Source of the DNA: Candidatus Babeliales bacterium
Lineage (GTDB): Bacteria > Babelota > Babeliae > Babelales > JANWKD01
Assembly: GCA_963722075.1 (NCBI GenBank)
Contig: CAVRJM010000001.1
Coordinates: 352,001 to 416,000, forward strand
Direction: 5' to 3'
Length of the DNA stretch: 64,000 bases
In this document: piece by piece, positions 6,468-55,341 of the stretch
Layout: each line of letters opens with the position of its first letter
How positions within the stretch are numbered: the first letter of the stretch is position 1
Notes under the pieces: generated by a model
The model's input: only the letters and a program-made list of their open reading frames with translations
What the model was told of the DNA's origin: nothing
The model's database searches: none
Translations under genes and position numbers: made by a program

Positions 6468-6508
6468 GTCGTTGCGATCCAGCCTTCGCCCAAGGGGCTT
6501 CGGCGGAC
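6468..6508. repeat. Family A end fragment (GTCGTTGCGA) plus a single family B hairpin
   Basis: TCCAGCCTTCGCCCAAGGGGCTTCGGCGGAC abuts the stop codon of 6508..8016. Confidence 0.75.
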
Positions 6509-12918: not shown

Positions 12919-13065
12919 CTGGATTCTTAGGCTTCGCTCAGAATGACATACGACACGGTCATCCTGAGGAACTTGCGTCCGACTTCGCCATGGCTACGCC
13001 GGATTCCTCAATAGCAAAGTGCGTGTCCGGCGGAGTTTTAACGGAGACGGAACGTGAGGATACAG
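12919..13065. repeat. Composite palindromic repeat: family A (right half then left half) carrying a family B doublet at 12975-13051
   Basis: CTGGATTC..CTCAGAATGAC / GTCATCCTGAG-[GCGTCCGACTTCGCCATGGCTACGCCGGA...TGTCCGGCGGAGTTTTAACGGAGACGGA]-ACGTGAGGATACAG. Confidence 0.85.
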
Positions 13066-18651: not shown

Positions 18652-18942
18652 ATGAAAATAACAGAGGTAAAAGTATATCCAGCGAAGGAAAACGGTAGGC
18701 TTAAAGCTTACGCAACGATAATCTTTGATAATGATTTTATTGTGCGTGATCTGAAAGTAATTGAAGGGGAAAAAGGACTCTTTGTATCAATGCCTTCCCG
18801 TCGCCGCAAAGATGGCTCATTTAGAGACATTGTCCATCCGCTCAACGCTGATACTCGCAAGATGATTGAAGAATCTATTATTGGTGAGTATAATAAAGCG
18901 GTTAAAATGGGTTTTAGCACCTCCGCTGAATCTGAAGAATAA
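18652..18942 (+). CDS. spoVG: SpoVG family nucleic-acid-binding regulator
   Basis: MKITEVKV..LKAYATI.FD..F.VRDLKVIEG..GLFVSMPSR..DG.FRDIVHP. Confidence 0.93.
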   Translation: MKITEVKVYPAKENGRLKAYATIIFDNDFIVRDLKVIEGEKGLFVSMPSRRRKDGSFRDIVHPLNADTRKMIEESIIGEYNKAVKMGFSTSAESEE

Positions 18943-18975
18943 AAAGTAGTAATATAAAGTTATTTGAATTATTGT

Positions 18976-19050
18976 TGGGGCGTCGCCAAGTGGTAAGGCA
19001 CCAGGTTTTGGTCCTGGCATTCGGAGGTTCGAATCCTTCCGCCCCAGCCA
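18976..19050 (+). tRNA. tRNA-Gln (TTG)
   Basis: TGGGGCG/CGCCCCA acceptor stem, anticodon arm CCAGG-TTTTGGT-CCTGG, GGTTCGAATCC T arm, encoded CCA. Confidence 0.97.
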
Positions 19051-19188
19051 TCCTTCGCTCTTACAGAGCTACGGCTGGGCAAGCCAGTTGTTTAAATGAA
19101 ATATACATAATAGAAAAGTGAAGAGCGAAGGCTGTCACGCCCTAGCTTATGCTTCAAAGTTATACCCGAGAAAAAAGCGACGGCGGAC
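19051..19188. repeat. Inverted doublet of family B hairpins between tRNA-Gln and the GIY-YIG gene
   Basis: TCCTTCGCTCTTACAGAGCTACGGCTGGGCAAGCC (+) and TGTCACGCCCTAGCTT...AAGCGACGGCGGAC (-). Confidence 0.75.
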
Positions 19189-19243
19189 TATAACTCGAAT
19201 TTCCTCTATTTTAAATAATAGTTATATTATCTGATTTCTTAAA

Positions 19244-19483
19244 ATGTATTATGTCTATATATTAAATTCAGTTATTGATAAAAATCGTATGTATGTCGGT
19301 TGTACAATTGATCTAGAAAATAGACTAAACGAACACAATGCTGGTGAATGTATACATACGAACAAGTACAAGCCATGGAAATTGTGGACTTACATATATT
19401 TTGAGAATAAAGAAAAGGCAATCGCTTTTGAACGTTACTTAAAATCTGGTTCTGGTAGATCTTTTTCAAAAAGGCATTTTTAA
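19244..19483 (+). CDS. Stand-alone GIY-YIG nuclease
   Basis: YYVYIL...MYVGCT.DLENRL.EHN.G...T.KY.PW...A..FE.YLKSGSGR; catalytic Tyr, Arg and Glu positions present. Confidence 0.92.
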   Translation: MYYVYILNSVIDKNRMYVGCTIDLENRLNEHNAGECIHTNKYKPWKLWTYIYFENKEKAIAFERYLKSGSGRSFSKRHF

Positions 19484-19485
19484 CT

Positions 19486-20118
19486 ATGCAATCAAACATC
19501 TTGCTCCTTGCTTCAAAATCACTCCAACGCCGAACGGCACTAGAACAAGCATGCATCCCTTTTAGAATTATCGAACAAAATGCTGATGAAAGCATTTGTG
19601 ATTATACGCTTCCATTCGGATCCCTTCTAGAATCAATTGCTATTCATAAAATGAATCATATTGTTATGCATGCTAATCTTGAGCATCCTGTTCAATTTGT
19701 TTTGACCGTGGATACCATGGTGCAAGATGGTGCGGGGAAAATATATGGTAAACCCTCATCTAAAGAAGTGGCACGATCATATATTAAAGCATTGCGTGAT
19801 AATCCGGGCCAGGTAGGCACTGCCTTTTGTCTTGATAAAAAAGAGTATGGAGATAATAGGTGGCATACAGTTGATCGCATTACCAAATTTGTGAGCGCCG
19901 GTTATTCGCTCGACATTCCCAATCATTGGATCGATACCTATTTTGATCAAGTGCCCGAATATCTTTCTATTGCCGGTGGACTTACTATCGAAGAATATGG
20001 AGCTCAATTTTTAAAAACCATTGACGGCTCTTATGGATGCGCAATAGGGCTTCCGCTTTATGAATTACGAGAATCATTAGATTTAATGGGATTTTTTACA
20101 TTGAAAAATTCAATCTGA
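19486..20118 (+). CDS. maf: Maf family nucleotide pyrophosphatase, paralog 1
   Basis: LLASKSLQRR, DE, TVDT, GKP, GSY..IGLP. Confidence 0.85.
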   Translation: MQSNILLLASKSLQRRTALEQACIPFRIIEQNADESICDYTLPFGSLLESIAIHKMNHIVMHANLEHPVQFVLTVDTMVQDGAGKIYGKPSSKEVARSYIKALRDNPGQVGTAFCLDKKEYGDNRWHTVDRITKFVSAGYSLDIPNHWIDTYFDQVPEYLSIAGGLTIEEYGAQFLKTIDGSYGCAIGLPLYELRESLDLMGFFTLKNSI

Positions 20119-22371: not shown

Positions 22372-23628
22372 TCAGTATTCAAAATTATTTATTATAGCCC
22401 ATGTATCTATGGCTTCTAAAATAAGCTTGCTTTGTTCATCATCTTTATTAACTGCTATAGATATAACTTTTTTAATGATTTCCGGATTGAGTGTTTTAGG
22501 ATTTGCATATTGTAGAAGTAGCTTTACTATTGGTAAATTATCATGATGTGCAGCCAAGCTAAAGGCAGAACTATTCAATTTATCAATTACATTAACATTT
22601 GCGCCGTGTTTTAAAAATAATTGAACAAGTTTATATATAAGTGGTGAAGGTTTATTTCTACATAATGAAATAAGTGGTGTACTTCCTGATGAATCGATTC
22701 CATTAATATTTGCACCACGTTCTAATAAAAAAAAGATTAATTTTATATATTTTTTATTTAAATTATTTACTGAATCAACCATAATAACATTTAATAAAGG
22801 ACCGTTGATAGAATAAGTGGCAACGGGGTCCTGGATTGATTCGTTAGGGCTCAGGCCAAGTTTAATAATTTTTTTTAATTTTTTATAAGCATCGTTAGCA
22901 TCGTTATTCGCAGCTTGAGGGTGATTTTTTATATTGTAATTATAAGTAAAAAAAGGAAGTAGAAGCTTAGAAATATAAGGTTTAAAAATAGCTGCTGAGG
23001 GATTTGTGAATTTTAATAATATTGTAAATAATTTTGGTTTTATTGTATATATATATGCATGTAATAAATAAAGACCATATTCTTTATTATTTAAAACAAC
23101 TAATAATTTTTGTAACTCACCTGCATTATTTTGCTTAATGGAATTATCTACATTTTTTAAGGTTTTCGCCGTATTACCTAACATATAAATAAATAATGGA
23201 TTAACGTTTATTTCTACCCAATCTTCAACTGAGCCATAAAGAACTGGCTGATATTCCCTTAGATAATTTAATGCATTATCTGTAATGAAAATGCCGTTAG
23301 ATATAGAATCAAACCGACGAGCAATTTCAATTGATAAGTGATCTAAAAAGTCACTATCTTGTAATACTACATATAAATTTGTATTAGTCATTGAAAGTCT
23401 AGATAATTCTTTAATAAATTGAATTAATTGATCTTTGGAATTAATAGTTTTTGGCAATAAATTCAAGACTATTTTATAAATAAGTTCAAAGGGTAATGTT
23501 CCTAATGAAGGTTTTTCTGGAATAGGGGCAAGTTGTATAGTTTCGACCGATTCTTCGGGTTCTTCCATTGGGATAGAAAAAGTGAAGAAAGAAATAATAA
23601 AAATACCTAGAAACAGTTTATTTTTCAT
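22372..23628 (-). CDS. Secreted ankyrin-repeat protein with N-terminal F-box-like motif
   Basis: Signal peptide; LGTLPFELIYKIVLNL; GANINGIDSSGSTPL, GANVNVID...SAFSLAA. Confidence 0.85.
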   Translation of the reverse strand: MKNKLFLGIFIISFFTFSIPMEEPEESVETIQLAPIPEKPSLGTLPFELIYKIVLNLLPKTINSKDQLIQFIKELSRLSMTNTNLYVVLQDSDFLDHLSIEIARRFDSISNGIFITDNALNYLREYQPVLYGSVEDWVEINVNPLFIYMLGNTAKTLKNVDNSIKQNNAGELQKLLVVLNNKEYGLYLLHAYIYTIKPKLFTILLKFTNPSAAIFKPYISKLLLPFFTYNYNIKNHPQAANNDANDAYKKLKKIIKLGLSPNESIQDPVATYSINGPLLNVIMVDSVNNLNKKYIKLIFFLLERGANINGIDSSGSTPLISLCRNKPSPLIYKLVQLFLKHGANVNVIDKLNSSAFSLAAHHDNLPIVKLLLQYANPKTLNPEIIKKVISIAVNKDDEQSKLILEAIDTWAIINNFEY

Positions 23629-23915: not shown

Positions 23916-24842
23916 TTATAATTCTAATGCCATCTTGATAATGGCATGATCAGAAAAATGCTTAATATGTTTAATATCCTGATTAACATGTCTGAGTAAA
24001 TTATTGGGATTTTCAGGGGAATAAATCAGATTTTTTACCGTGAACTGCTTACTATAAAAAATAAAATCATTAAGATTAAATCCTTGTTGCGCGCCGGTTG
24101 AGGTTGGTACTAATGGAAGCATATCAGCATTGCTTTTCATTTCATGCACATAGTGCTGTAACTTATTATATTTTTTTTTATTTAACTTATCAGTGCCTTG
24201 CAATACGGAGTAATTAAAATCTCCGCATATAATCCATGGTAGATTTTTTGGCGCGCGATCAATTGTATCTTTAATAATAGAAAAATGATCTGCATGATCC
24301 TCATTGAGCATAAAAGGTATATGCGTATTGATAATGCCTATTGCTTTCTTTTTTTTAGTTTGCAAATGCGCAACCATCATTTTTTTATTAGGAGTAAACA
24401 CCATAAATTCGTAGGAAAGAATAGTAAATTTATGCTTATTAATGAGTGTGAGTACGCCGTCTTTTTGTGCAATGCTATCAATAATATAATAATAATCATT
24501 GGGTGAATATGCATCTAATAAGGTGTTATTAAACCTCTTATATTGTACTTCTCTATTATTATTAAAATAATCGTATTTAGTTTCCTTATGGCCATTTACC
24601 ATAACAACTTCTTGTTCAAATTGTTTACGTAATTCCCCTGGGTTATAGGGCCATTCTTGAAAACAAAGGATATCACACCCATTAAGGATATGGCCCGGTC
24701 GTAATGCTTGTTTAAAAAGAGAACATCTTTTTTTAATAGCAATGGGATACTGATCTACATATTGAATGTAATAAGGCTCATAAAGCACATTACAAGTGGC
24801 AGCGGTTATGGTTGAGGCTGATGATCGTTTCATATGGATCAT
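23916..24842 (-). CDS. Endonuclease/exonuclease/phosphatase (EEP) family protein, paralog 1
   Basis: TCNVL, DILCFQE, INTH, ICGDFN, DFIFY, FSDH. Confidence 0.9.
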   Translation of the reverse strand: MIHMKRSSASTITAATCNVLYEPYYIQYVDQYPIAIKKRCSLFKQALRPGHILNGCDILCFQEWPYNPGELRKQFEQEVVMVNGHKETKYDYFNNNREVQYKRFNNTLLDAYSPNDYYYIIDSIAQKDGVLTLINKHKFTILSYEFMVFTPNKKMMVAHLQTKKKKAIGIINTHIPFMLNEDHADHFSIIKDTIDRAPKNLPWIICGDFNYSVLQGTDKLNKKKYNKLQHYVHEMKSNADMLPLVPTSTGAQQGFNLNDFIFYSKQFTVKNLIYSPENPNNLLRHVNQDIKHIKHFSDHAIIKMALEL

Positions 24843-24906
24843 TTCTTAAATAATTGTTATTATTATATCATATAAAGATTTATAAAACTTTTTCTATATT
24901 TTTATT

Positions 24907-25524
24907 ATGAATAATATTCTTTTATTGGCATCTCAATCATATTCGCGTCGTCAATTACTCAGTCAAGCAGCTATCCCTTTTGTATTGTTAGAACAATCAG
25001 CTGATGAAAATGCCTGCGATTGGAATATGCCACTTACTCAGTTAGTTACTTCAATCGCTAAGCATAAAATGGAACAGGTTATTTTACCGCGTCACACAGA
25101 TAGTAAACCGATTTTTGTGTTGACGGCTGATACCTTAACGCAAGATCTATCAGGAACGATTTTGGGTAAACCAACATCGCGATCCCATGCACTTGAAATG
25201 CTACGCGCAGTGCGCGCAGGGGCTCGTATTGCTACGGCATTTTGCTTAGATAAAAAAATTTATCGCTTTGATACCTGGCAGACCCAAGAACGAATTATAA
25301 TGGTAGTAGAATCGAGTTGTATATTTAATGTGCCTGAGCAATGGCTTGAACAATATCTTTATCATGTACCCGCATTAAGTTGTTCTGCAGCCATGTATAT
25401 TGAAGGGTATGGGGCGCAATTTTTAAAATCCGTAACGGGTTCTTATAGTACCATTATTGGTTTACCTATATGTGAGGTGCGGCAAGCCTTAGAAAAAATG
25501 GGATTTTTTAGCGAGAGTATTTAA
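24907..25524 (+). CDS. maf: Maf family nucleotide pyrophosphatase, paralog 2
   Basis: LLASQSYSRR, TADT, LGKP, GSYSTIIGLP. Confidence 0.85.
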   Translation: MNNILLLASQSYSRRQLLSQAAIPFVLLEQSADENACDWNMPLTQLVTSIAKHKMEQVILPRHTDSKPIFVLTADTLTQDLSGTILGKPTSRSHALEMLRAVRAGARIATAFCLDKKIYRFDTWQTQERIIMVVESSCIFNVPEQWLEQYLYHVPALSCSAAMYIEGYGAQFLKSVTGSYSTIIGLPICEVRQALEKMGFFSESI

Positions 25525-25932
25525 TAGACTGCTTATGGATTGAGAGTTATAGCAAATTAATGTACAGCAAAATCCCAACGTTAAAAAAGCGCTATTATTA
25601 AATAAATGTTTTTTGGCTTGCAAAAATGGTTTAATTTTTGCTGCTTCATGTTGCTGCCTAAGTGATTCATTACCTTCTTCTATTAATTTATTTTCTTCTT
25701 TTATATCTGCTTGTTGTTGTTTACTTCCTTGTAATGGTTTTAAGCTTGAAAGTATGAGTGGCTTATTTTTATCAGCAGCCTCTTTATAAATTGTATACGA
25801 TATAATAGTTCTATAAAGTTGAATAGCCGTTAAGCCAGCGCACAACGTGGTGCCTATGGTAGAAAACGTCAACGGCACTTCAGAATACATGGTATTGTAA
25901 AATATGAACAGTATAATTAAGCACTTTTTCAT
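25489..25932 (-). CDS. Hypothetical membrane protein
   Basis: Signal peptide plus two hydrophobic segments; start overlaps the upstream EEP stop. Confidence 0.65.
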   Translation of the reverse strand: MKKCLIILFIFYNTMYSEVPLTFSTIGTTLCAGLTAIQLYRTIISYTIYKEAADKNKPLILSSLKPLQGSKQQQADIKEENKLIEEGNESLRQQHEAAKIKPFLQAKKHLFNNSAFLTLGFCCTLICYNSQSISSLLNTLAKKSHFF

Positions 25933-27002
25933 AGCTGAAATTCTATTCGTATCACTGCATGATCCGAAAAATAATCATTTTCATTAGGATCTTGATTTTC
26001 ATGATGAATTAATTGACCAGCAGTTGGAAATAATGACGCATTAAGCACTTTCATCGTGTTGCTAAAAAATACATAATCGTCATGCTCTGGATAATTATGA
26101 GCGCCCCATGCCGTTGCAGGGAGATAATATCCGCTTTTTTCCTGTTGTCCCAGTAATAAAACCACATTGTTAAAATGAGGAAAGCGGTTTGCTAACTGGT
26201 TAAAAAGTGTTTGATCTAAATAATAATGATATTGAAGATCTAAAATATCATAATTAAAATCTCCACAGACAATCCAATAAGTAACGCTACTATTATCAGC
26301 GATTATCTTCTTAATAGTATTTAAGCCATGTAAATTTGCTTGTGCATTATACGGTAGATGTGCATTTATAACTCCCATAGTATGCGGATGATTTTTTGGT
26401 TGTATAATAGTAACCAAGATTCTTTTTGATATATCAAGCGTAATGGTTTGTGATGATAATAATTGAAATTTATTTTTATTTATTACGGTAAGTACCGTGT
26501 CATACGGGGCTAAGTTATCATAAATATATTCGTATGCCTGAGTAGGATATGCATCAGCAAGATCTTCAATAAATTTTAAATAAGAGGCATTGATAGAATT
26601 AAAATAATTATTCTTAGTTATAGCTTGCTTATTAATATAAATAACATCATTCTTATTTTGGCGTAATTCACCTACACCGTATGGCCATTCTTGAAAACAA
26701 AGAATATCAACGTTTTGCAAAGCATGATTATTTTGTAAACTTTTTCTAAAGGCGGCACGGCGATTTTGTATATCTATTAATACATTATTTTTTTTTAGAT
26801 ATTGAACGTAAAATGGTTCGTACAACATGTTGCAGGTAGTGAGCGTAAACTTAAATGGGATTGTTGCGAGCGTGGTAAGGGGCGTGCTGAGAGCGGTGTG
26901 TAATTGTTGTAATGAAGTTCGTAAGTGATTTAATTCAGTTTCTAAGGCCCCCAGATAATTGAATAGAAATAAGTGGACGAGCAGTAAAAAGTTTTTATTC
27001 AT
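25929..27002 (-). CDS. Secreted EEP family protein, paralog 2
   Basis: Signal peptide; TCNML, DILCFQEWPY, VCGDFN, DYVFF, FSDH. Confidence 0.9.
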   Translation of the reverse strand: MNKNFLLLVHLFLFNYLGALETELNHLRTSLQQLHTALSTPLTTLATIPFKFTLTTCNMLYEPFYVQYLKKNNVLIDIQNRRAAFRKSLQNNHALQNVDILCFQEWPYGVGELRQNKNDVIYINKQAITKNNYFNSINASYLKFIEDLADAYPTQAYEYIYDNLAPYDTVLTVINKNKFQLLSSQTITLDISKRILVTIIQPKNHPHTMGVINAHLPYNAQANLHGLNTIKKIIADNSSVTYWIVCGDFNYDILDLQYHYYLDQTLFNQLANRFPHFNNVVLLLGQQEKSGYYLPATAWGAHNYPEHDDYVFFSNTMKVLNASLFPTAGQLIHHENQDPNENDYFSDHAVIRIEFQL

Positions 27003-27065: not shown

Positions 27066-27256
27066 GTCATTCCGAGCGCGTCCGACCTCGCCACGGGGCT
27101 CCGCCGGATTCCGTCAATGATAGTGTGCCTGTCCGGCGAAGTTGTTTACACCGCCATAGCTTTTAGCGACGGCCGGATTAACGTAGATGGATGGGAATCC
27201 ATTAATAAGATTTTTCATTTATAAATGGATCACCACGGCTAACGCCTCGTGATGAC
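27066..27256. repeat. Triple-nested palindromic repeat (family A > family B doublet > extra family B hairpin)
   Basis: GTCATTCCGAG...CTCGTGATGAC outer inverted ends; B doublet 27078-27191; 34 bp insert 27144-27177. Confidence 0.85.
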
Positions 27257-42993: not shown

Positions 42994-44304
42994 TTAATGA
43001 GTTTGTTTTTTATAGTTTTCCTGTAGCAGAGAGGTAATTTCAACATTAGAATGGTTAATGGTTAAATCATTCAGAGTAATAGTAGCACCTTTACGCAGTA
43101 ATAATTTAATTATTTTTACGTAATTATTATACTGATAATGATCGTGTGTAGGTATGTTTTCCAGCGCAAATGTTAAAGCGGAGTAATTAAGATTTTCTTT
43201 ATAGTTAATATCGGCTTCGCATTTAATTAATTTTTTTACTGCTTCTCTTTGACCGTGAATGCATGCAAATTGTAATGCTGATAGCCCGTTTTCAGCAGTT
43301 GTGCAATTTACATCGGCGCTTCCTTGATGAACAATATGATGTATATTTTTGGGGTTATATAGAATTGCTACAAATAAAATATTAAAAGGATCTTCTGAAA
43401 AAGCCTCGGGTACTTCGGACTCATTATTGTTTCCTTCCAAATCATTTGGGTGAAAGTTTTGATTAAAATCGAAGCCCGCTTCATACATTCGTTTAAAATT
43501 ATGTGGTTTTTTAAAATCAACAATTATTAATAAATCTTCAAACCATAACGTTGCGCCTTTTTGTATAAGCGAGACACCTAATTCAGGGAATTTTTTAAGC
43601 GATATGCCTAAAGCGTTTTCACCGATTTCATTATCTTCAAGTTGTAATTGAATATCATCGCCAAGAATAGCAATTATCTTTCTAGCCACCATTTCATAAT
43701 TATGTTGTAATGCAGTTAGTAAAGGGGATTTATTAAATTTATCATAATTGCTTAGTAATGGTATTGGACTTGCGTTATTTGATAATGTTTCCATTACCTC
43801 TAAAAAGGCAATAGCACGCTTTTGTTTACCATGTGCGATACAATGATGAAAGGCATTCTGTCCGTCATTATTTACGGCGGTTATATTATCCATAGTATTA
43901 TTATAAATATTTGACAAAATGAATGCTTGTAAATCTGATGTGGTTGATAAATAATGTAAAACGGTATTGTTAAAACGAGAGCGATAATTATTAAATTCAT
44001 CTTGTAATTCAATAGGAAGTTTAGCATATGCTTCTGCCAATGGAACAAGTTTTTTTGGATATAATTTAAATACTATTGAGGGTTTTTGCTTAAAATATTT
44101 TATTAATTGGGTAAAAACTAATTCTTTTAAACTTTTGACTCTATTTGACTTTTTATATTCAGTTTCTTTAATTTTTTTTATAATTTTTGTTGTAATACTT
44201 TTTTCTTCTTTAGTTTCTTCTCGTGATCTTTTCATTGCCCATGCAGGGTAAATTACAAAAGATATTAATAATGAAAATAGACCGAATTTAATTTTATGAG
44301 TCAT
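42994..44304 (-). CDS. Secreted ankyrin-repeat protein with BC/SOCS-box-like motif
   Basis: AWA|MKRSR; SLKELVFTQL...KLPIEL; GQNAFHHC, KSPLLTAL, GLSALQFAC. Confidence 0.85.
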   Translation of the reverse strand: MTHKIKFGLFSLLISFVIYPAWAMKRSREETKEEKSITTKIIKKIKETEYKKSNRVKSLKELVFTQLIKYFKQKPSIVFKLYPKKLVPLAEAYAKLPIELQDEFNNYRSRFNNTVLHYLSTTSDLQAFILSNIYNNTMDNITAVNNDGQNAFHHCIAHGKQKRAIAFLEVMETLSNNASPIPLLSNYDKFNKSPLLTALQHNYEMVARKIIAILGDDIQLQLEDNEIGENALGISLKKFPELGVSLIQKGATLWFEDLLIIVDFKKPHNFKRMYEAGFDFNQNFHPNDLEGNNNESEVPEAFSEDPFNILFVAILYNPKNIHHIVHQGSADVNCTTAENGLSALQFACIHGQREAVKKLIKCEADINYKENLNYSALTFALENIPTHDHYQYNNYVKIIKLLLRKGATITLNDLTINHSNVEITSLLQENYKKQTH

Positions 44305-44334
44305 GATTTTATTTTCTCCATTTAAGCGATTGTA

Positions 44335-45135
44335 TTATTTTTTTTCTAATAGGGCGGAAATTTTTTTGCCTACTTTCATTCGTACTGAATATTTGGGATA
44401 GGTAATTATGTAAGGATCGCCAAATTTGTCTATTTGTTGTTGCATAAAATAAGCATTTCCCTCTGTATATTCTTTACCCTTCATGCAGCTCAAAATATCT
44501 GCCCGTAATTCTTGAAACTGAATTAATTTATTAAGTGGGTTATTTTTCTGATCAGTAATTGGTTTATAAGGAGTTGAGTTGCGTATAAAATAACGCGTAG
44601 AATGATCATGATGAATCAAATGAATAAGTTCATGTCCTATAATAAACTGTTGTCCTTCTGGCGATAACTTTTTGAACATACTTTCGTTTACAAAAATAAT
44701 GCTATCAGTAGAAGAAGCAGGTATTTCAATATTCCATGGTATCATTTCAACCTGAGTGCTATCAACGTTAAATTCAGCCATAATATCCTTAATCAATTGG
44801 ACGGTATCTGCCGAAATGAGTTGATTAGAATTATAATGTTTTTTCATATCTTGAATACTTGCCCAATAATCAGAATGAGGATCATTGCGTAATTGTTGGC
44901 ATTGATTAGCAGTCATTGGATATACAGCGCTAATTTCTTGCCATAATGCTGTTTGGGTGGTATCAAGCCATTCGAGTAGTTGATTGTCAGTAGTAACGTG
45001 ATCAAAGTTGACGGCATTAATGTTGAAATGTTTGGCTATTGAAGGTTCTATTTTTGTATTTTGTACATGCTTGGATGCATATATAACAATAATTCCTATC
45101 AAAATTGTGGGATAAAGTATGTATTTGAATTGCAT
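44335..45135 (-). CDS. HEXXH metallopeptidase (M48-like), paralog 2
   Basis: FIIGHELIH, QELRAD, TYPKYSVR. Confidence 0.75.
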   Translation of the reverse strand: MQFKYILYPTILIGIIVIYASKHVQNTKIEPSIAKHFNINAVNFDHVTTDNQLLEWLDTTQTALWQEISAVYPMTANQCQQLRNDPHSDYWASIQDMKKHYNSNQLISADTVQLIKDIMAEFNVDSTQVEMIPWNIEIPASSTDSIIFVNESMFKKLSPEGQQFIIGHELIHLIHHDHSTRYFIRNSTPYKPITDQKNNPLNKLIQFQELRADILSCMKGKEYTEGNAYFMQQQIDKFGDPYIITYPKYSVRMKVGKKISALLEKK

Positions 45136-45168
45136 GATTTTATTTTCTCCATTTAATTAATAATTTTA

Positions 45169-46560
45169 TTATTGATTCTTTTCTAATCGTTCAAGCTCTT
45201 GTTTTTGATAATACTCTTGTAGAAGATCAGATAATTTTTGATCTGCTTGTACAACTTCCTTATCATATGCTGAGATAGTAATGCCTTTGCGTAGTAACAA
45301 CTTAATTATTTTCAAAAGAGTTTCTGAGTCAGCAGATGTATCTTCGATATATTGTTCAAGAATGAAACTCAAAACGGTACCGCCAGTAGATTGTTCTTCA
45401 TTAAGATTTGCGCCTTCTTTAATGAGTTTTTTTATGGCAGAAATGTTATAGGTTTTAGCTGCAAATGATAAAGGGGATTCGCTATCAGCGCAGGCGTTAA
45501 CGTCGGCTTTGCCCTCACGTACAAGGCGAGTAATATTTTTGGGTTTATGCATAACTGCTAACATTAAGCAAGTAAACTCGCTATTACAGGGCTCATCTAT
45601 TTCATTAATATCGGGAATATAAAGGGCGCTTTGATCGAAATCAAAGTTAGCTTGATGGAGTTGCTTAAATAGAAGAGGGTCATCTGTTTGAGCTATAGCT
45701 TTTAAGTGGTTAAAATCTACTTCTGCCCCGTTTTTAATAAGTAATGGTACTAATCTTGGGACATTAACGATTGCTGCAATGAGAGGGTTTTGCCCACTTT
45801 TATTAGGTTTATTAAGATAATTGCTCAATTGATCAGGGTTATTGCCAACAATAGTAATAATTTTTTCAGCAATTTTTTTATAACCGTTTAATAACGCCAA
45901 TAATAAGGGATGATTGTTGTTGGGGTTAAGGACGTTGTCAATTAAACAGGCAGCATTGAATTTTACCATACCCTCTTCTTCTTCTTGGGCTAATTGTTCT
46001 TTCTCTATTTGTTGGGCGACATCTAATAAGGTATCTGCAATAGCTGGTTGTCTTTGTATAAGGCGAGAATATAATGCTGTATGCCAGTTGGGTACTATAC
46101 TATATTCTGTTGCGCTATTTTCATCATTGTTATTATTGTTTTCATTGTTATGAGTTTTGGTAGTAGGAATTTGATTAGATTCAATGGCTAATTTGATAAA
46201 TGCCTTTATATCTTGTGGATCAAATAATTTATGTAAAAGACTGGAATCTTTCTTATGAGAATGTTGATTGCATTCTATCCGTAATTCCACTGGTAAGCGA
46301 GGGTATGCTGCTGCTAATGTGCCCGGTATTCTTTTAAAATATTTTACCAATGCTTTTTTTGCCAATTTTTTTAAGGTTTTTATTTGTATTGGTTCACTGA
46401 GTTCTTCACTAAGGCATTTGGCTTCTTTCGCGCTTGAGCTTGCTCTATTGGTACCTCGTTCTAATTCATGTCTGGGTCTCTTCATTGCCCATGCAGAATG
46501 AGTTGCACAAGAAAGAAAGGCAAACGCTATTACTATATTAAGTTTAGTTTTAAAAATCAT
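45169..46560 (-). CDS. Secreted ankyrin-repeat protein with BC/SOCS-box-like motif
   Basis: AWA|MKRPR; TLKKLAKKAL...RLPVEL; HPLLLAL, GQNPLIAA, ESPLSFAA; paralog of 42994..44304. Confidence 0.85.
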   Translation of the reverse strand: MIFKTKLNIVIAFAFLSCATHSAWAMKRPRHELERGTNRASSSAKEAKCLSEELSEPIQIKTLKKLAKKALVKYFKRIPGTLAAAYPRLPVELRIECNQHSHKKDSSLLHKLFDPQDIKAFIKLAIESNQIPTTKTHNNENNNNNDENSATEYSIVPNWHTALYSRLIQRQPAIADTLLDVAQQIEKEQLAQEEEEGMVKFNAACLIDNVLNPNNNHPLLLALLNGYKKIAEKIITIVGNNPDQLSNYLNKPNKSGQNPLIAAIVNVPRLVPLLIKNGAEVDFNHLKAIAQTDDPLLFKQLHQANFDFDQSALYIPDINEIDEPCNSEFTCLMLAVMHKPKNITRLVREGKADVNACADSESPLSFAAKTYNISAIKKLIKEGANLNEEQSTGGTVLSFILEQYIEDTSADSETLLKIIKLLLRKGITISAYDKEVVQADQKLSDLLQEYYQKQELERLEKNQ

Positions 46561-48133: not shown

Positions 48134-48290
48134 GTCGTCACGAGGAGCGGCGTCCGACTTCGCCAAGGCTACGACGGATTCCGTCAAAGCAAGCGCGCCT
48201 GTCCGTCGAAGTTTTAACGTAGACGGAACGTGGTGATCCAGGCTGAAATTTTCAAGGAACCCTGGATTGCTTCGACGAGCTCGCAACGAC
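48134..48290. repeat. Complete family A palindrome carrying a family B doublet at 48150-48227
   Basis: GTCGTCACGAG...CTCGCAACGAC ends; inner GATCCAGG/CCTGGATT stem; GCGTCCGACTTCGCCAAGGCTACGACGGA...TGTCCGTCGAAGTTTTAACGTAGACGGA. Confidence 0.88.
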
Positions 48291-51489: not shown

Positions 51490-53391
51490 ATGAAATTTTG
51501 TAAAATCTTATTACTGTCTATAGGTTTGTTGGGACTTTTATGTCCTCAATTTATGGAAAGCATGGACCTAAAGTCATATGCTATTAAGCATTCATCAGCC
51601 CTTGTATCACATATACTGAACCATAAATACACTTACTTAGGAATAGGCGCATTAGCGTGCCTTGGAGGTATATATGGTGGTTATAGCTTATACCGTAAGG
51701 CTTACCAGCAACCTCAGTCTCAGCCTCAAATAAAAAAGGAGCTTCGTAGCTTATTATTGGGGCGTCCTTTGATCGTTGATAAAAATGACTTGTTGTCTAA
51801 ACGAGAAGAACGTAATAAACGGTTGTTGTTGAATGAAATGAGCGGGATAATTAATGAATATAAAAATTTAAAAAAATTTATTCTTCCTACTAATGAATAT
51901 CCAGCATATAAAATAAATAAAATGGTGCCATCTACCACGCCACTTGCCTATGAAACGCTTGATAAATTGGTTGATCTCTTTTTTTGCATGATGCAAAGAA
52001 GTGTTTTTAATAAACAAGATTATTGGATAAACCATACCAATCCGCAACAGTTTCTTAATCATCTTAGTAACAATGAAGAAGAACCTCAATTTAATCCGTT
52101 TATGCAAAAAATAGTAGTAAACCCAGGATCCCAAATAGCTTTTCAGGGTGATTTGCATGGTGATGTGCATTCGTTACTAGCAAGTTTGGATGCGTTAAAA
52201 GAAAAAGGATATTTAGATGAAAATTATAAAATAATAAAAGATAATTTTTATTTGGCTTTTTTAGGTGACTATGTTGATAAAGGCATATACGGCTTAGAAG
52301 TTATTTCGGTAATTATGTACCTAAAATGTCTTAACTTTAATAAGGTTCTTTTAGTGCGTGGGAATCATGAAGATTGGTATATATCGGGGACTGACATGTT
52401 TGACGCTGAAATATGCCGCAAGTTCCAGCTTGATGAAGATAATGATATTGGCAATAAGTACGCCAATATTACCAAAAAAATAAAAAAGATGTATGAATGC
52501 TTGCCAGTGGCTATATTTTATGGAGTGCGTGATACCACCAATACAACCAATTATCTTTTGTTATGCCATGGAGCAGTTGAATGGGGTGTAAATACTCATA
52601 ATCTTCTGAGTCATAATAATAGCGTTGCATTTGAGCAAATAAAATCGCTCAACCGCAAAACAGAGTTAAATAATTTAATGCACAATGATGAAATTTTTAA
52701 AAAGTTAGATGATTTTGTGCATCTCGATGAGCGAAATAATACGGCATTCAACTTACATAGTCCCGATTATGAAGTAAGCAGTATTGCAGGAGGTATTGAT
52801 GATGGTAAGGCTATCTCTTTTGTATGGGGTGATTATATTGTAAAATCTGATGCCGAGCGCAAATCTGCTACCAGTAATTTTAAATTTATTTTGCCTGGCA
52901 GGTTATTTCAGATTGGGGAATATTTCAATTGGATGGTATTAAAAGGATATAGCACTCCTCATCATAAAGTTCGTGGAGTATTTCGCGGGCATCAGCATGC
53001 TGCTGAGATTGAAAATCCAATGATGCAAAGTATTTTCAAAAGAATCTCTTTTGATTCAAAAACATCGGGGTCAGAGATTGATGAATATTCGCATGATTAC
53101 AAAGAAAATGCAGGAGTGAGTAAGCTATGGCTTTCAAGCGCGCCGCCAAATACGTATGCATTATGGGATAATATTGTCTGCACCTTTAATGTAAGCCCAT
53201 GTACTACTTGCCAACAGGCGGGGATTATCAAAAAAAATGATAAAACTAAACACAAGTTTAATTTTACAACACTTGGGATGCTTACCACTGCATCAGCATT
53301 TGAAGATTGGAAATTAGACGTAAGTCGCATAAAAATATTTAATAAAAATGTTTTTCAAGAATTGCAGGCCCAAAACAATAAGCAACAATAG
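51490..53391 (+). CDS. Secreted PPP/calcineurin-like metallophosphoesterase, paralog 1
   Basis: GDLHGD, GDYVDKG, RGNHE, LCHG, RGHQH; signal peptide plus one TM. Confidence 0.9.
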   Translation: MKFCKILLLSIGLLGLLCPQFMESMDLKSYAIKHSSALVSHILNHKYTYLGIGALACLGGIYGGYSLYRKAYQQPQSQPQIKKELRSLLLGRPLIVDKNDLLSKREERNKRLLLNEMSGIINEYKNLKKFILPTNEYPAYKINKMVPSTTPLAYETLDKLVDLFFCMMQRSVFNKQDYWINHTNPQQFLNHLSNNEEEPQFNPFMQKIVVNPGSQIAFQGDLHGDVHSLLASLDALKEKGYLDENYKIIKDNFYLAFLGDYVDKGIYGLEVISVIMYLKCLNFNKVLLVRGNHEDWYISGTDMFDAEICRKFQLDEDNDIGNKYANITKKIKKMYECLPVAIFYGVRDTTNTTNYLLLCHGAVEWGVNTHNLLSHNNSVAFEQIKSLNRKTELNNLMHNDEIFKKLDDFVHLDERNNTAFNLHSPDYEVSSIAGGIDDGKAISFVWGDYIVKSDAERKSATSNFKFILPGRLFQIGEYFNWMVLKGYSTPHHKVRGVFRGHQHAAEIENPMMQSIFKRISFDSKTSGSEIDEYSHDYKENAGVSKLWLSSAPPNTYALWDNIVCTFNVSPCTTCQQAGIIKKNDKTKHKFNFTTLGMLTTASAFEDWKLDVSRIKIFNKNVFQELQAQNNKQQ

Positions 53392-53703
53392 AAATTCATT
53401 CATATGGCGAATTTTATACGCGTAATGATTTTAAGTTTTTAAATTCGATAAACACATCTATTTGAAAATTTATAATTAGTATTATGGTAATTTGCTAATC
53501 AGATTTTGTTGTTTAGAATTAACTGATTAATAATATTGCGTATCAAAATTATGTTTTTCATTCAAATTTAATCATATTTTATATTTGTTTTTCATTTTAG
53601 CGATCCAGTGCCGCAAACAGAAGATGTTTGACGGCTTGTTGCTTTTGGCGTATCGTTAATTGCCAATAATCGTCAATTACTGTATCAAAGAAAGGATTTT
53701 GCT

Positions 53704-55341
53704 ATGCAATTATATGGAATATGCTTACTAAGTTTATTGCTGTCATCATTATTAACATCATATGGTATGGAGGCTGATACAACGCCAATTGATATGGCTG
53801 ATATAATAGATGAGATGAAAGCAGTTATTCCTCAATATGCTAAGCTGGATAAGTTCATGATGGATGGCAATTATTTTCGCGCCTCTGCTTTTAAAAGTTA
53901 TATCCCAAAAAAAACGCCACTATCGTACGACCTTTTAGATAAACTATTTACTTGTTTTTTTTATAGGATGCAAAATAATCCTGTTAGCCAGCAAACAAAT
54001 TGGAGCGATAATACTAATCCTCAAGAATTTTTTCATTCAATTCTTTCTGCTAAAAAAGAAGAAGAAGTGCCCTTTAGGCCTTATATGCAAAAAATGGTAG
54101 TTGCGCCGGGGTCAGAAAAAAATTTTCAAGGTGATTTGCACGGCGATGTTCATTCATTATTGGAAACCCTCCAAGGATTGCAAGAAAAAGGATATTTAGA
54201 TGATAATTACAAAATAATAAAAGATAATTTTTATCTTGCTTTTTTAGGGGATTATGTAGATAAGGGTATCTATGGCATAGAGGTTATTTCATTAATTTTA
54301 TATTTAAAATGTCTCAACTTTGATAATGTATTGCTGGTACGTGGTAATCATGAAGATTGGACCATTTGCGGTAATGAAGCATTTGGAAGTGGGGAGCTTC
54401 CTTTAAAATTCCCTAAAGAAAATGATGAACTGCGTAATAAAATTCAAAAAATGTATGAATGCTTACCGGTTGCTATATTTTATGGGGTCCCAGATGCCAA
54501 CAATATAACTAATTATGCTTTATTGTGCCATGGCGGGGTAGAGATGGGAGTTGATACCCATAATCTTCTTCCTCATCCCAAAGCTATTACATTTGAACAA
54601 ATAAAAACTATTGATCGCGTTACTCAAGCAAATAAATTAAAGGCGCTAGAGCGTTATAAGCAATTAATTGCATTAAATGCTTGTGCAGTAGAGGCTTTAG
54701 AAAGAGAAATTTTTAGAGTTAATAGTTTTGTTCCTGAAATATTACCAGACGTTGGATTTGCATGGAATGATTATTATGTTAAGCCCGATGACAAACGGAA
54801 TAATGAGGATGGCTTTAAGTGGGCAAAAATTTATCCTGGCAGAGGTATAATAATAGGAGAACTTTTTAATCAATTGGTTTTAGAAGCATATAGTACAGAG
54901 CATCACAAAGTGCGCGTCGTAATACGCGGTCATCAACATAATAATGCGCATATGGATGAAATGATGCAAAGTGTTTTCAAGAAAAAATCATTTGGTCAAA
55001 AACAGACCAAAGAATCAGCGATTGATCTTGCATCGAACGATTATTATGAAAATAAAGGGGTGAGCAAATTGTGGCTTTCTCAATCGCCTCCTCATGCGCA
55101 CTCAGTATGGCCTAATTTGGTATGCACAATCAATGTTAGTCCCTGCACTTTTTACCAAAATGTGGGCATTGTAAATAAAGGTGTTCTCTCTAAAATTAAA
55201 CATAAATTTAATTTTGCTACGGTAGGAATTTTAAAAACTGCAGCATCATTTGAAGATTGGAAGTTAACAGTAGTCCGCAAAGAGATATTTGGCAAAGATG
55301 AATTCCAATTATTACAAAATAAAAAAAATAGTAAAAATTAA
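53704..55341 (+). CDS. Secreted PPP/calcineurin-like metallophosphoesterase, paralog 2
   Basis: GDLHGD, GDYVDKG, RGNHE, LCHGG, RGHQH; signal peptide. Confidence 0.9.
   Translation: MQLYGICLLSLLLSSLLTSYGMEADTTPIDMADIIDEMKAVIPQYAKLDKFMMDGNYFRASAFKSYIPKKTPLSYDLLDKLFTCFFYRMQNNPVSQQTNWSDNTNPQEFFHSILSAKKEEEVPFRPYMQKMVVAPGSEKNFQGDLHGDVHSLLETLQGLQEKGYLDDNYKIIKDNFYLAFLGDYVDKGIYGIEVISLILYLKCLNFDNVLLVRGNHEDWTICGNEAFGSGELPLKFPKENDELRNKIQKMYECLPVAIFYGVPDANNITNYALLCHGGVEMGVDTHNLLPHPKAITFEQIKTIDRVTQANKLKALERYKQLIALNACAVEALEREIFRVNSFVPEILPDVGFAWNDYYVKPDDKRNNEDGFKWAKIYPGRGIIIGELFNQLVLEAYSTEHHKVRVVIRGHQHNNAHMDEMMQSVFKKKSFGQKQTKESAIDLASNDYYENKGVSKLWLSQSPPHAHSVWPNLVCTINVSPCTFYQNVGIVNKGVLSKIKHKFNFATVGILKTAASFEDWKLTVVRKEIFGKDEFQLLQNKKNSKN

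Follow-up and report, generated by a model that had tools for sequence, protein, structure and literature searches.

A small GIY-YIG nuclease gene with a hairpin leader at tRNA CCA ends: a candidate minimal selfish element

Described systems and the focal locus

GIY-YIG nucleases of the Ssn type (SsnA, CDD cd10448) are paired with NTS/SRM hairpins, and in the sections of Chenal et al. (2025, PMC11893778) used here, SsnA is described as cutting single-stranded DNA beside its own NTS hairpin and as limiting transformation, while the Ssn genes are proposed to be domesticated mobile elements. The review file of that publication presents the bacterial SLX1-like proteins as a sparsely characterised sister clade. 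GTAG- and CGTC-tagged repeats were described by Di Nocera et al. (2013, PMC3733652), in whose text, in the part used here, no transposase was found for the CGTC repeats, and the account of the GTAG repeats makes no mention of tRNA anchoring or GIY-YIG. The tRNA-linked repeats (TLRs) of E. coli lie directly behind tRNA genes, have no known function and end in an 18–19 bp copy of the tRNA end; no nuclease is described for them in the part of PMC8144298 used here.

The stretch of DNA analysed as a whole, referred to as the window, is 64,000 nt long and corresponds to positions 352001–416000 of contig C1 in the focal genome G000 (1.47 Mb, 35% GC, 99% complete). At the focal locus, spoVG (18652..18942, + strand) is followed by the host gene tRNA-Gln(TTG) (18976..19050, +), a 193-nt leader, a gene encoding a 79-aa GIY-YIG protein (19244..19483, +) and maf (19486..20118, +); spoVG and maf mark the orthologous locus in relatives and lie outside the element. 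The nuclease gene is intact and stand-alone, and its product has the C-terminal YLKSGSGR type and an Slx1-like fold. The initial annotation had reported such a gene ending 2 nt before maf, which is correct: PF01541 matched the ORF with an E-value of 2.2 × 10−15 (57.1 bits against a curated cut-off of 22.6), and the start of maf at 19486 lies 2 nt past the end of the gene.

The 79-aa protein is thus a member of the GIY-YIG superfamily; it consists of one domain and ends eight residues past the Pfam domain. Residues Y5, Y17, G19, R27, H31 and E63, which we take to be the GIY-YIG active-site residues with catalytic roles, were invariant across 44 relatives and are kept in the focal protein. We assume that the label "SLX1-like, cd10449" applies to it; no NCBIfam model matched it at the model's own cut-off. 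The structural model (pLDDT 95.5) gave HIGLE/Slx1 structures as top fold matches (7WME, 7CQ2 and 6SEI; TM 0.72–0.75), in agreement with the Slx1-type relation suggested initially. It resembles Slx1/HIGLE and UPF0213 in these best fold matches and differs from Slx1/HIGLE in having neither an Slx4 partner nor an extra domain and in being tied to a hairpin and to tRNA ends. Free-standing GIY-YIG homing endonucleases have a separate C-terminal DNA-binding region, and such a region is absent from the focal protein. The closest named nuclease relative (78% identity) belongs to a Candidatus Dependentiae record, which makes that phylum the probable one of the host; the phage and plasmid collections yielded no relative (E-value thresholds of 1 × 10−8 and 1 × 10−12). 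Among the sequencing runs listed as containing the sequence, nine were DNA runs with small shares and none was an RNA run. In all 70 close nuclease pairs, pN was lower than pS (median ratio 0.22), a substitution pattern that shows the enzyme to be under purifying selection, and an internal stop was present in 3 of 100 gene copies.

As stated in the initial annotation, no transposase was detected in the window, and this holds for the 52 ORFs scanned with Pfam, which comprise all but five of the window ORFs of 110 aa or longer and a minority of the shorter ones. Many window ORFs had no Pfam match. The window also contains ankyrin-repeat genes, two calcineurin-like phosphoesterases in tandem and two exo/endo-phosphatase genes (22372–23628, 42994–46560, 51490–55341 and 23916–27002), as well as two maf paralogues 5 kb apart (19486–20118 and 24907–25524; 46% identical), which are duplicated also in G001, G003 and G004.

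The nearest published system is Ssn/SRM and not REP/RAYT, to which the locus had been likened at first. As in the sections of PMC11893778 used here, a small single-domain GIY-YIG gene has an imperfect hairpin of its own that is dispersed in the genome, many copies lack the gene, and the presence of the repeat follows that of the gene; unlike in that system, the hairpin is a different one, and the focal leader lies on the 5' side, whereas the Ssn genes have inverted repeats on both sides. The nucleases also differ in that those of the focal type dock on the CCA of tRNA/tmRNA genes (75 of 100 loci, against none of 30 for the Ssn type). By sequence comparison, the focal protein would fall outside the Ssn clade, and its gene appears not to be flanked by SRM repeats. 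It was 33% identical over 55 aa to an Ssn-type protein of the focal genome, and 30 Ssn-type proteins lay on one side of a branch excluding it (SH-aLRT 93; a quick tree of 100 columns), these being stand-ins without SsnA itself, chosen by similarity to the 96-aa protein of the focal genome encoded between CGTC-type hairpins. The published SRM pattern had no match within 500 nt of the focal gene, a weak test alone because the pattern also misses the Ssn-type loci of this genome; a looser pattern likewise gave no match.

The hairpins resemble REP/REPIN sequences with RAYT in being short extragenic imperfect palindromes with inverted doublets in spacers and an enzyme gene beside some of them, but the focal enzyme is a GIY-YIG and not an HUH Y1 protein. 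The single Y1 gene of the focal genome had no hairpin unit within 1.5 kb, nor had any of 30 Y1 loci, so that, as the initial annotation had allowed, RAYT/TnpA is not the partner. The hairpin foot carries no terminal GTAG tag; CGWAG forms an internal loop within the stem, where TTC is commoner than TAC. REP/RAYT identity was rejected because no Y1 gene lies beside the repeats and the terminal GTAG tag is missing. Identity with E. coli-type TLRs was also rejected: the tRNA end is repeated behind no more than 4 of 66 nuclease genes, and a nuclease gene is present. Integrative elements and prophages use tRNA/tmRNA 3' ends and leave the host gene intact. The focal cassette shares the target region and the intact host gene with them; unlike them, it is about 430 bp long and has no integrase and no att duplication at the locus. 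An integrase-driven element was rejected because there is no integrase nearby and no tail copy at the focal locus.

In the literature covered, which lies outside subscription journals, no description of a tRNA-anchored hairpin with a GIY-YIG cassette was found, and the bare hairpin may figure among the repeat families in the supplements of Chenal et al. or in the figures and supplements of Di Nocera et al. What is new here is the near-saturation of tRNA ends, the map of gain and loss between sister genomes, and the side-by-side control with Ssn-type and Y1 loci.

Hairpin architecture and occurrence in the genome

Hairpin 1 (19048..19078, +) consists of CCA, 2 nt, CTTCG, a 4-bp stem with its loop, CTACG, 2 nt and TGG, with a mismatch at the +1 position in the focal copy. 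Its outer 5' arm is the encoded CCA of tRNA-Gln (19048–19050), common to both, which closes on TGG. It is followed by a short conserved tail ending in GCCA (19076..19086, +), a T/A-rich spacer, a distal arm (19121..19134, +) and hairpin 2 (19134..19188, −), an inverted, degenerate unit with a long loop. The distal arm is an alternative partner for the 5' arm of hairpin 1, positions 19121–19131 being a perfect 11-bp complement of 19052–19062. Of these elements, the inverted pair of imperfect hairpins directly after the CCA had been recognised in the initial annotation, and the third arm had been missed. Across loci, the leader was found with two orders of the same arms, the near arm coming first in 43 phylum and 14 metagenome loci and the perfect arm in 10 metagenome loci (L124, L128, L135, L141, L167, L173 and others show the two arm orders).

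Taken alone, the focal hairpins fold weakly (z from −1.3 to −2.3), and hairpin 2 folds no better than shuffles. Minimum free energy folding of the tRNA trailers of the genome paired all of CCA in 19 of 37 cases (6.4 expected) and missed most long forms; covariation was therefore used instead, and it is covariation across copies that supports the predicted hairpin. In 52 distinct anchored long units, the +1 position was paired in 50 (26 expected if independent) and the +2 position in 39 (15 expected), the pairs being of more than one type, and two pentamers were conserved and unpaired in the middle of the stem while the stem positions covaried. The discriminator base and the base after TGG showed no covariation (9 against 9.1 expected), which places the edge of the element within CCA. 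The distal arm matched the first arm of its own element at 9 of 9 positions in 25 of the 52 cases, compared with 3.1 for the arms of other elements.

In the focal genome, a hairpin starting on CCA was present at +1 in 28 of the 37 tRNA/tmRNA genes, namely, in the long form in 12 and in a short form without pentamers in 16; the genes without it were three for Met and those for Cys, Pro, Trp, Val(GAC), Ala and Ile. An identical 24-nt trailer was common to six different tRNA genes. Consequently, the proposal that the tRNA 3' end is the home site of the element stands as regards the tRNA end, but not as regards a single tRNA, the site being instead the CCA of most tRNA/tmRNA genes. The short form (for example, C1:283793–283819 and 328278–328304) was also found at one non-tRNA site, and 4 of its 16 copies were flipped between CCAG and CTGG. 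In the same-genus genome G001, the hairpins behind two tmRNA 3' ends 2 kb apart (C1:795232 and 797383) belong to different variants.

At eight metagenome loci (L124, L130, L133, L135, L141, L150, L167 and L172) and at L013–L015, the tRNA gene has no separately encoded CCA, and the hairpin follows a CCA formed by the acceptor end and the discriminator or, where the discriminator is G, begins on the CC behind it. The eight metagenome loci, where it follows the acceptor-end/discriminator CCA, suggest that the CCA of the DNA is used whatever its register. Such a target at the DNA level argues against priming by mature tRNA (with its CCA end on the TGG arm), which is made less likely also by L013–L015, without an added CCA, and by the lack of any RVT_1 match in the 99% complete focal genome. 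Cassettes were also found behind conserved non-tRNA segments of 70–95 nt ending in CCA (L226, L227, L231, L234, L235, L236 and L008; in the focal genome, C1:881756–881825). These segments were of two types, and three lay beside toxin–antitoxin-like pairs, as judged by eye. Since the proteins of L226 and L227 fall in the tRNA-Arg group and those of L234 and L236 in the tRNA-Glu group, the segments may be decayed tRNA tails. Rfam searches returned the tRNA as the sole match at 18900–19500 and nothing relevant at the non-tRNA anchors.

A first, loose scan for the unit was replaced by a strict one because of its high background (113 real matches against about 30 in shuffled sequence). The strict scan yielded 84 units in the whole genome and none in each of four shuffles of C1. 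The ten window positions listed in the initial annotation all carry the motif, and eight of them were complete by the strict scan, which misses the degenerate copy at 19134 and the 27131 unit, interrupted by a unit nested at 27151. Eight of the ten copies lie inside or at the end of repeats of a second, CGTC type, which in the focal genome flank a different, Ssn-type GIY-YIG gene. These are the free unit at 6478..6507 (+), which begins where a CGTC-type repeat has its 3' end, the doublets (12978–13003, +, and 13026–13051, −; 48153–48178, +, and 48202–48227, −) in the repeats at 12958..13065 (+; SRM-like) and 48134..48241 (+), respectively, and the three units of the repeat at 27066..27202 (+), namely, 27081–27108 (+), an inverted outer unit that begins at 27131 and, nested in its loop, a unit with its core at 27155–27171 (−). 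The nested arrangement, in which a unit sits as a clean insertion at the tip of another unit's loop, is repeated at several genomic sites.

Genome-wide, about 110 plain CGTC-type repeats were counted and 22 were flagged as filled, one of them falsely; 61 of the 84 strict units lay in or beside such repeats (a loose test with a background of 13%). The published SRM pattern matched the genome at 2 sites, compared with 1–3 in shuffles, and at this level cannot score the CGTC-type repeats. Each of the three Ssn-type GIY-YIG genes of the genome (C1:1398408–1398695, 140112–140399 and 1361610–1361855; one with an internal stop) sits between inverted CGTC-type hairpins, and these genes are the obvious candidate mobilisers for the CGTC-type repeats. 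The composite repeats have probably multiplied as wholes, possibly by means of the Ssn-type enzyme.

Association with the nuclease and turnover between relatives

The survey covered 150 genomes of the phylum that were at least 90% complete, of which 88 had a strong nuclease hit, 22 a weak one and 40 none; a strong hit was defined by E < 1 × 10−21 to the alignment, at a score gap set before the hairpin counts were known. The anchored hairpin pattern was present in 85 of 88, 11 of 22 and 11 of 40 genomes, respectively, the last two groups together giving 22 of 62 genomes; part of this link is built in, since the pattern was made from leaders beside nuclease genes, and related genomes in these counts are not independent. 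The genomes without a strong hit carried up to 13 copies, and only 3 of the 88 with one had no hairpin by the pattern. At least two anchored copies were found in 76 of 88 genomes with the nuclease and in 14 of 62 without it, a comparison of copy number with nuclease presence that the initial annotation had suggested. Genomes with the nuclease had the larger mean hairpin count in 10 of 11 families and 9 of 10 genera. Free units whose outer stem is TCCG were present in 41 of 88 versus 5 of 62 genomes, and a backwards control pattern had no match in the surveyed genomes. No link to the anchored hairpin was seen for Ssn-type genes (20 of 24 genomes with them against 87 of 126) or Y1 transposases (40 of 53 against 67 of 97).

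At the level of loci, 100 nuclease genes were considered (the 30 best phylum loci, 60 of the next 67 hits and 10 from the focal genome and its family). A tRNA/tmRNA end on the same strand lay within 600 nt upstream of 75 of them and represented 15 RNA types, a hairpin started within 6 nt at 67, and 25 had no recognisable tRNA within 600 nt. Of the 80 best metagenome loci, with sufficient flanking sequence available for 66, a tRNA/tmRNA preceded the gene in 57, and several named loci from other phyla were tRNA-linked as well. At Ssn-type loci, CGTC-type hairpins were found in 26 of 30. At a distance of up to 1.5 kb, a hairpin unit accompanied 25 of 30 nuclease loci, compared with 4 of 30 Ssn-type and 3 of 29 maf loci. 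Together, these comparisons bear out the idea that the nuclease and the hairpin belong together. Neither a target duplication nor a copy of the tRNA tail was detected at the focal locus.

Comparison with relatives revealed three states at the tRNA-Gln/maf locus. Among the maf loci of 29 relatives, 10 include tRNA-Gln and none has the nuclease gene; the cassette is present in the focal genome, the hairpin without the gene in G001, and neither in nine other genomes, which have ordinary trailers and provide the empty sites looked for. The 36 orthologous tRNA/tmRNA ends compared between the focal genome and G001 (38 rows less one non-tRNA match and the second tmRNA tail, with Asp unmatched) had the hairpin in both in 18 cases, only in the focal genome in 9, only in G001 in 2 and in neither in 7, four degenerate copies of G001 having been scored as present by eye. 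Hence, 11 of 36 ends differ in hairpin presence, with the boundary at CCA, and the hairpin has been gained or lost between these sister genomes. Where both genomes carry it, the variants are mostly different.

The focal genome has nuclease copies at tRNA-Gln, tRNA-Gly and tRNA-Glu, the last with a stop, and a broken fourth copy on contig C4. Elsewhere, the gene is hosted by tRNA-Asp in G001, by tRNA-Arg and tRNA-Asp in G003 and by tRNA-Arg in G004. The host tRNA type was clustered on the protein tree (25 changes against 44.4 after shuffling), and near relatives of the nuclease also occurred at different tRNAs, such as Phe and Pro in G055. This clustering is compatible with homing or with plain inheritance.

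Possible explanations and their significance

The small predicted nuclease gene, preceded by a hairpin that is found behind three-quarters of the tRNA genes and comes and goes between relatives, is likely to be a tiny selfish element that would carry its hairpin to tRNA ends with neither an integrase nor a transposase, and the explanation that we favour, somewhat above even confidence, is a minimal element consisting of the nuclease gene and a hairpin leader fused to the tRNA CCA end, which would be able to spread. At tRNA ends, the hairpin lies outside the mature RNA, and the gene would be expressed by read-through from the strong tRNA promoter. The protein may bind the stem through its pair of conserved pentamers, probably on the strand where these form G·A mismatches, and, by analogy with SsnA, may nick single-stranded DNA a few bases beside its own hairpin at the tRNA end. 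Host repair would then use the common CCA as micro-homology and copy the hairpin to the CCA ends of other tRNA/tmRNA genes; the whole cassette would be copied more rarely, and the gene-less hairpins would be non-autonomous copies. Against the selfish reading, a nick alone leaves the joining step unexplained, no partner ligase or recombinase is encoded, and the units in or beside CGTC-type repeats (61 of 84) may have been multiplied by the Ssn-type enzyme. It is weakened further by the hairpins in 22 of the 62 genomes that lack a strong hit, by the weak folding of the focal hairpins, by the 25 of 100 genes without a tRNA upstream, by the tail copy at only 4 of 66 loci and by the lack of a phage or plasmid relative in the collections searched.

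An unlikely alternative, although one compatible with a selfish element, is a domesticated guard, in which the nuclease would cut incoming or recombining single-stranded DNA that bears the hairpin and thereby limit exchange or integration at tRNA/tmRNA ends, the hairpins being kept as tags. The purifying selection on the nuclease is in line with it, and tRNA/tmRNA ends are, in general, common integration sites; the precedent is SsnA, which limits transformation according to the sections of PMC11893778 used here. Such a role accords poorly with the patchiness and rapid turnover seen between orthologous tRNAs, with the 62 of 150 relatives without a strong nuclease hit and with two broken copies among the four of the focal genome.

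That the hairpins serve the host as RNA signals in tRNA 3' processing or in termination, with the nuclease gene as a passenger, is improbable. Their position on the same strand at exactly +1 of 28 of 37 genes, the T-rich run after the tail and their persistence in genomes without the gene are what such signals would show, but orthologous tRNAs lack the hairpin in the sister genome, nine relatives have ordinary trailers, and no terminator-like site was called at the focal locus. Moreover, the strand carrying the G·A mismatches in the pentamers folds more stably in 62 of the 84 units, whereas the transcribed strand of hairpin 1 carries the pyrimidine mismatches; about 70 occurrences of the unit in the genome are away from tRNA +1 positions, and presence tracks the nuclease gene.

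A very small probability is assigned to movement of the hairpins by another enzyme (an Ssn-type nuclease, a Y1 transposase, an integrase or a reverse transcriptase), with the focal gene as cargo. Most long units of the focal genome are nested in Ssn-associated repeats, and the genome encodes three Ssn-type genes and one Y1 transposase; yet the hairpin was found in 67 of 70 genomes with the nuclease and no Ssn-type hit, compared with 2 of 6 with the Ssn-type only, and in 55 of 57 with the nuclease and no Y1 hit, while no unit lay at the Y1 loci, the two tyrosine recombinases of the focal genome are both distant from the locus, and RVT_1 had no match. Least probable is spread without active targeting, in which hairpins that arose once beside the gene would have spread by ordinary gene conversion through the T-arm and CCA: the homogenised variants within a genome and, at a few loci, the tandem copies of the cassette that end in a tRNA tail would fit, but different tRNAs share only a few bases of homology, ordinary terminators show no such spread in the empty-site genomes, and conservation of the two pentamers goes together with covariation in the stem.

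Returning to the selfish element, we propose tentatively, at slightly less than even confidence, that it represents a new class, in which a GIY-YIG protein of 79 residues would be the sole enzyme, acting on its own single-stranded DNA hairpin, using any tRNA/tmRNA CCA as a three-base crossover and seeding gene-less hairpins on most of a genome's tRNA genes and in other repeats. The system bears on how short palindromic repeats can spread without a RAYT, and it makes mobilisation by a GIY-YIG enzyme directly testable: the target is defined and can be scored (the base after CCA), sister genomes offer both empty and filled alleles, and a second nuclease–repeat pair in the focal genome can serve as a specificity control. 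If the proposal is true, non-RAYT palindromic repeats would have a first demonstrated mobiliser, and targeting of tRNA ends would have a new mode that needs no integrase; and if the enzyme cuts its own hairpin, the Slx1-like sister clade would add many single-stranded DNA nucleases with new specificities.
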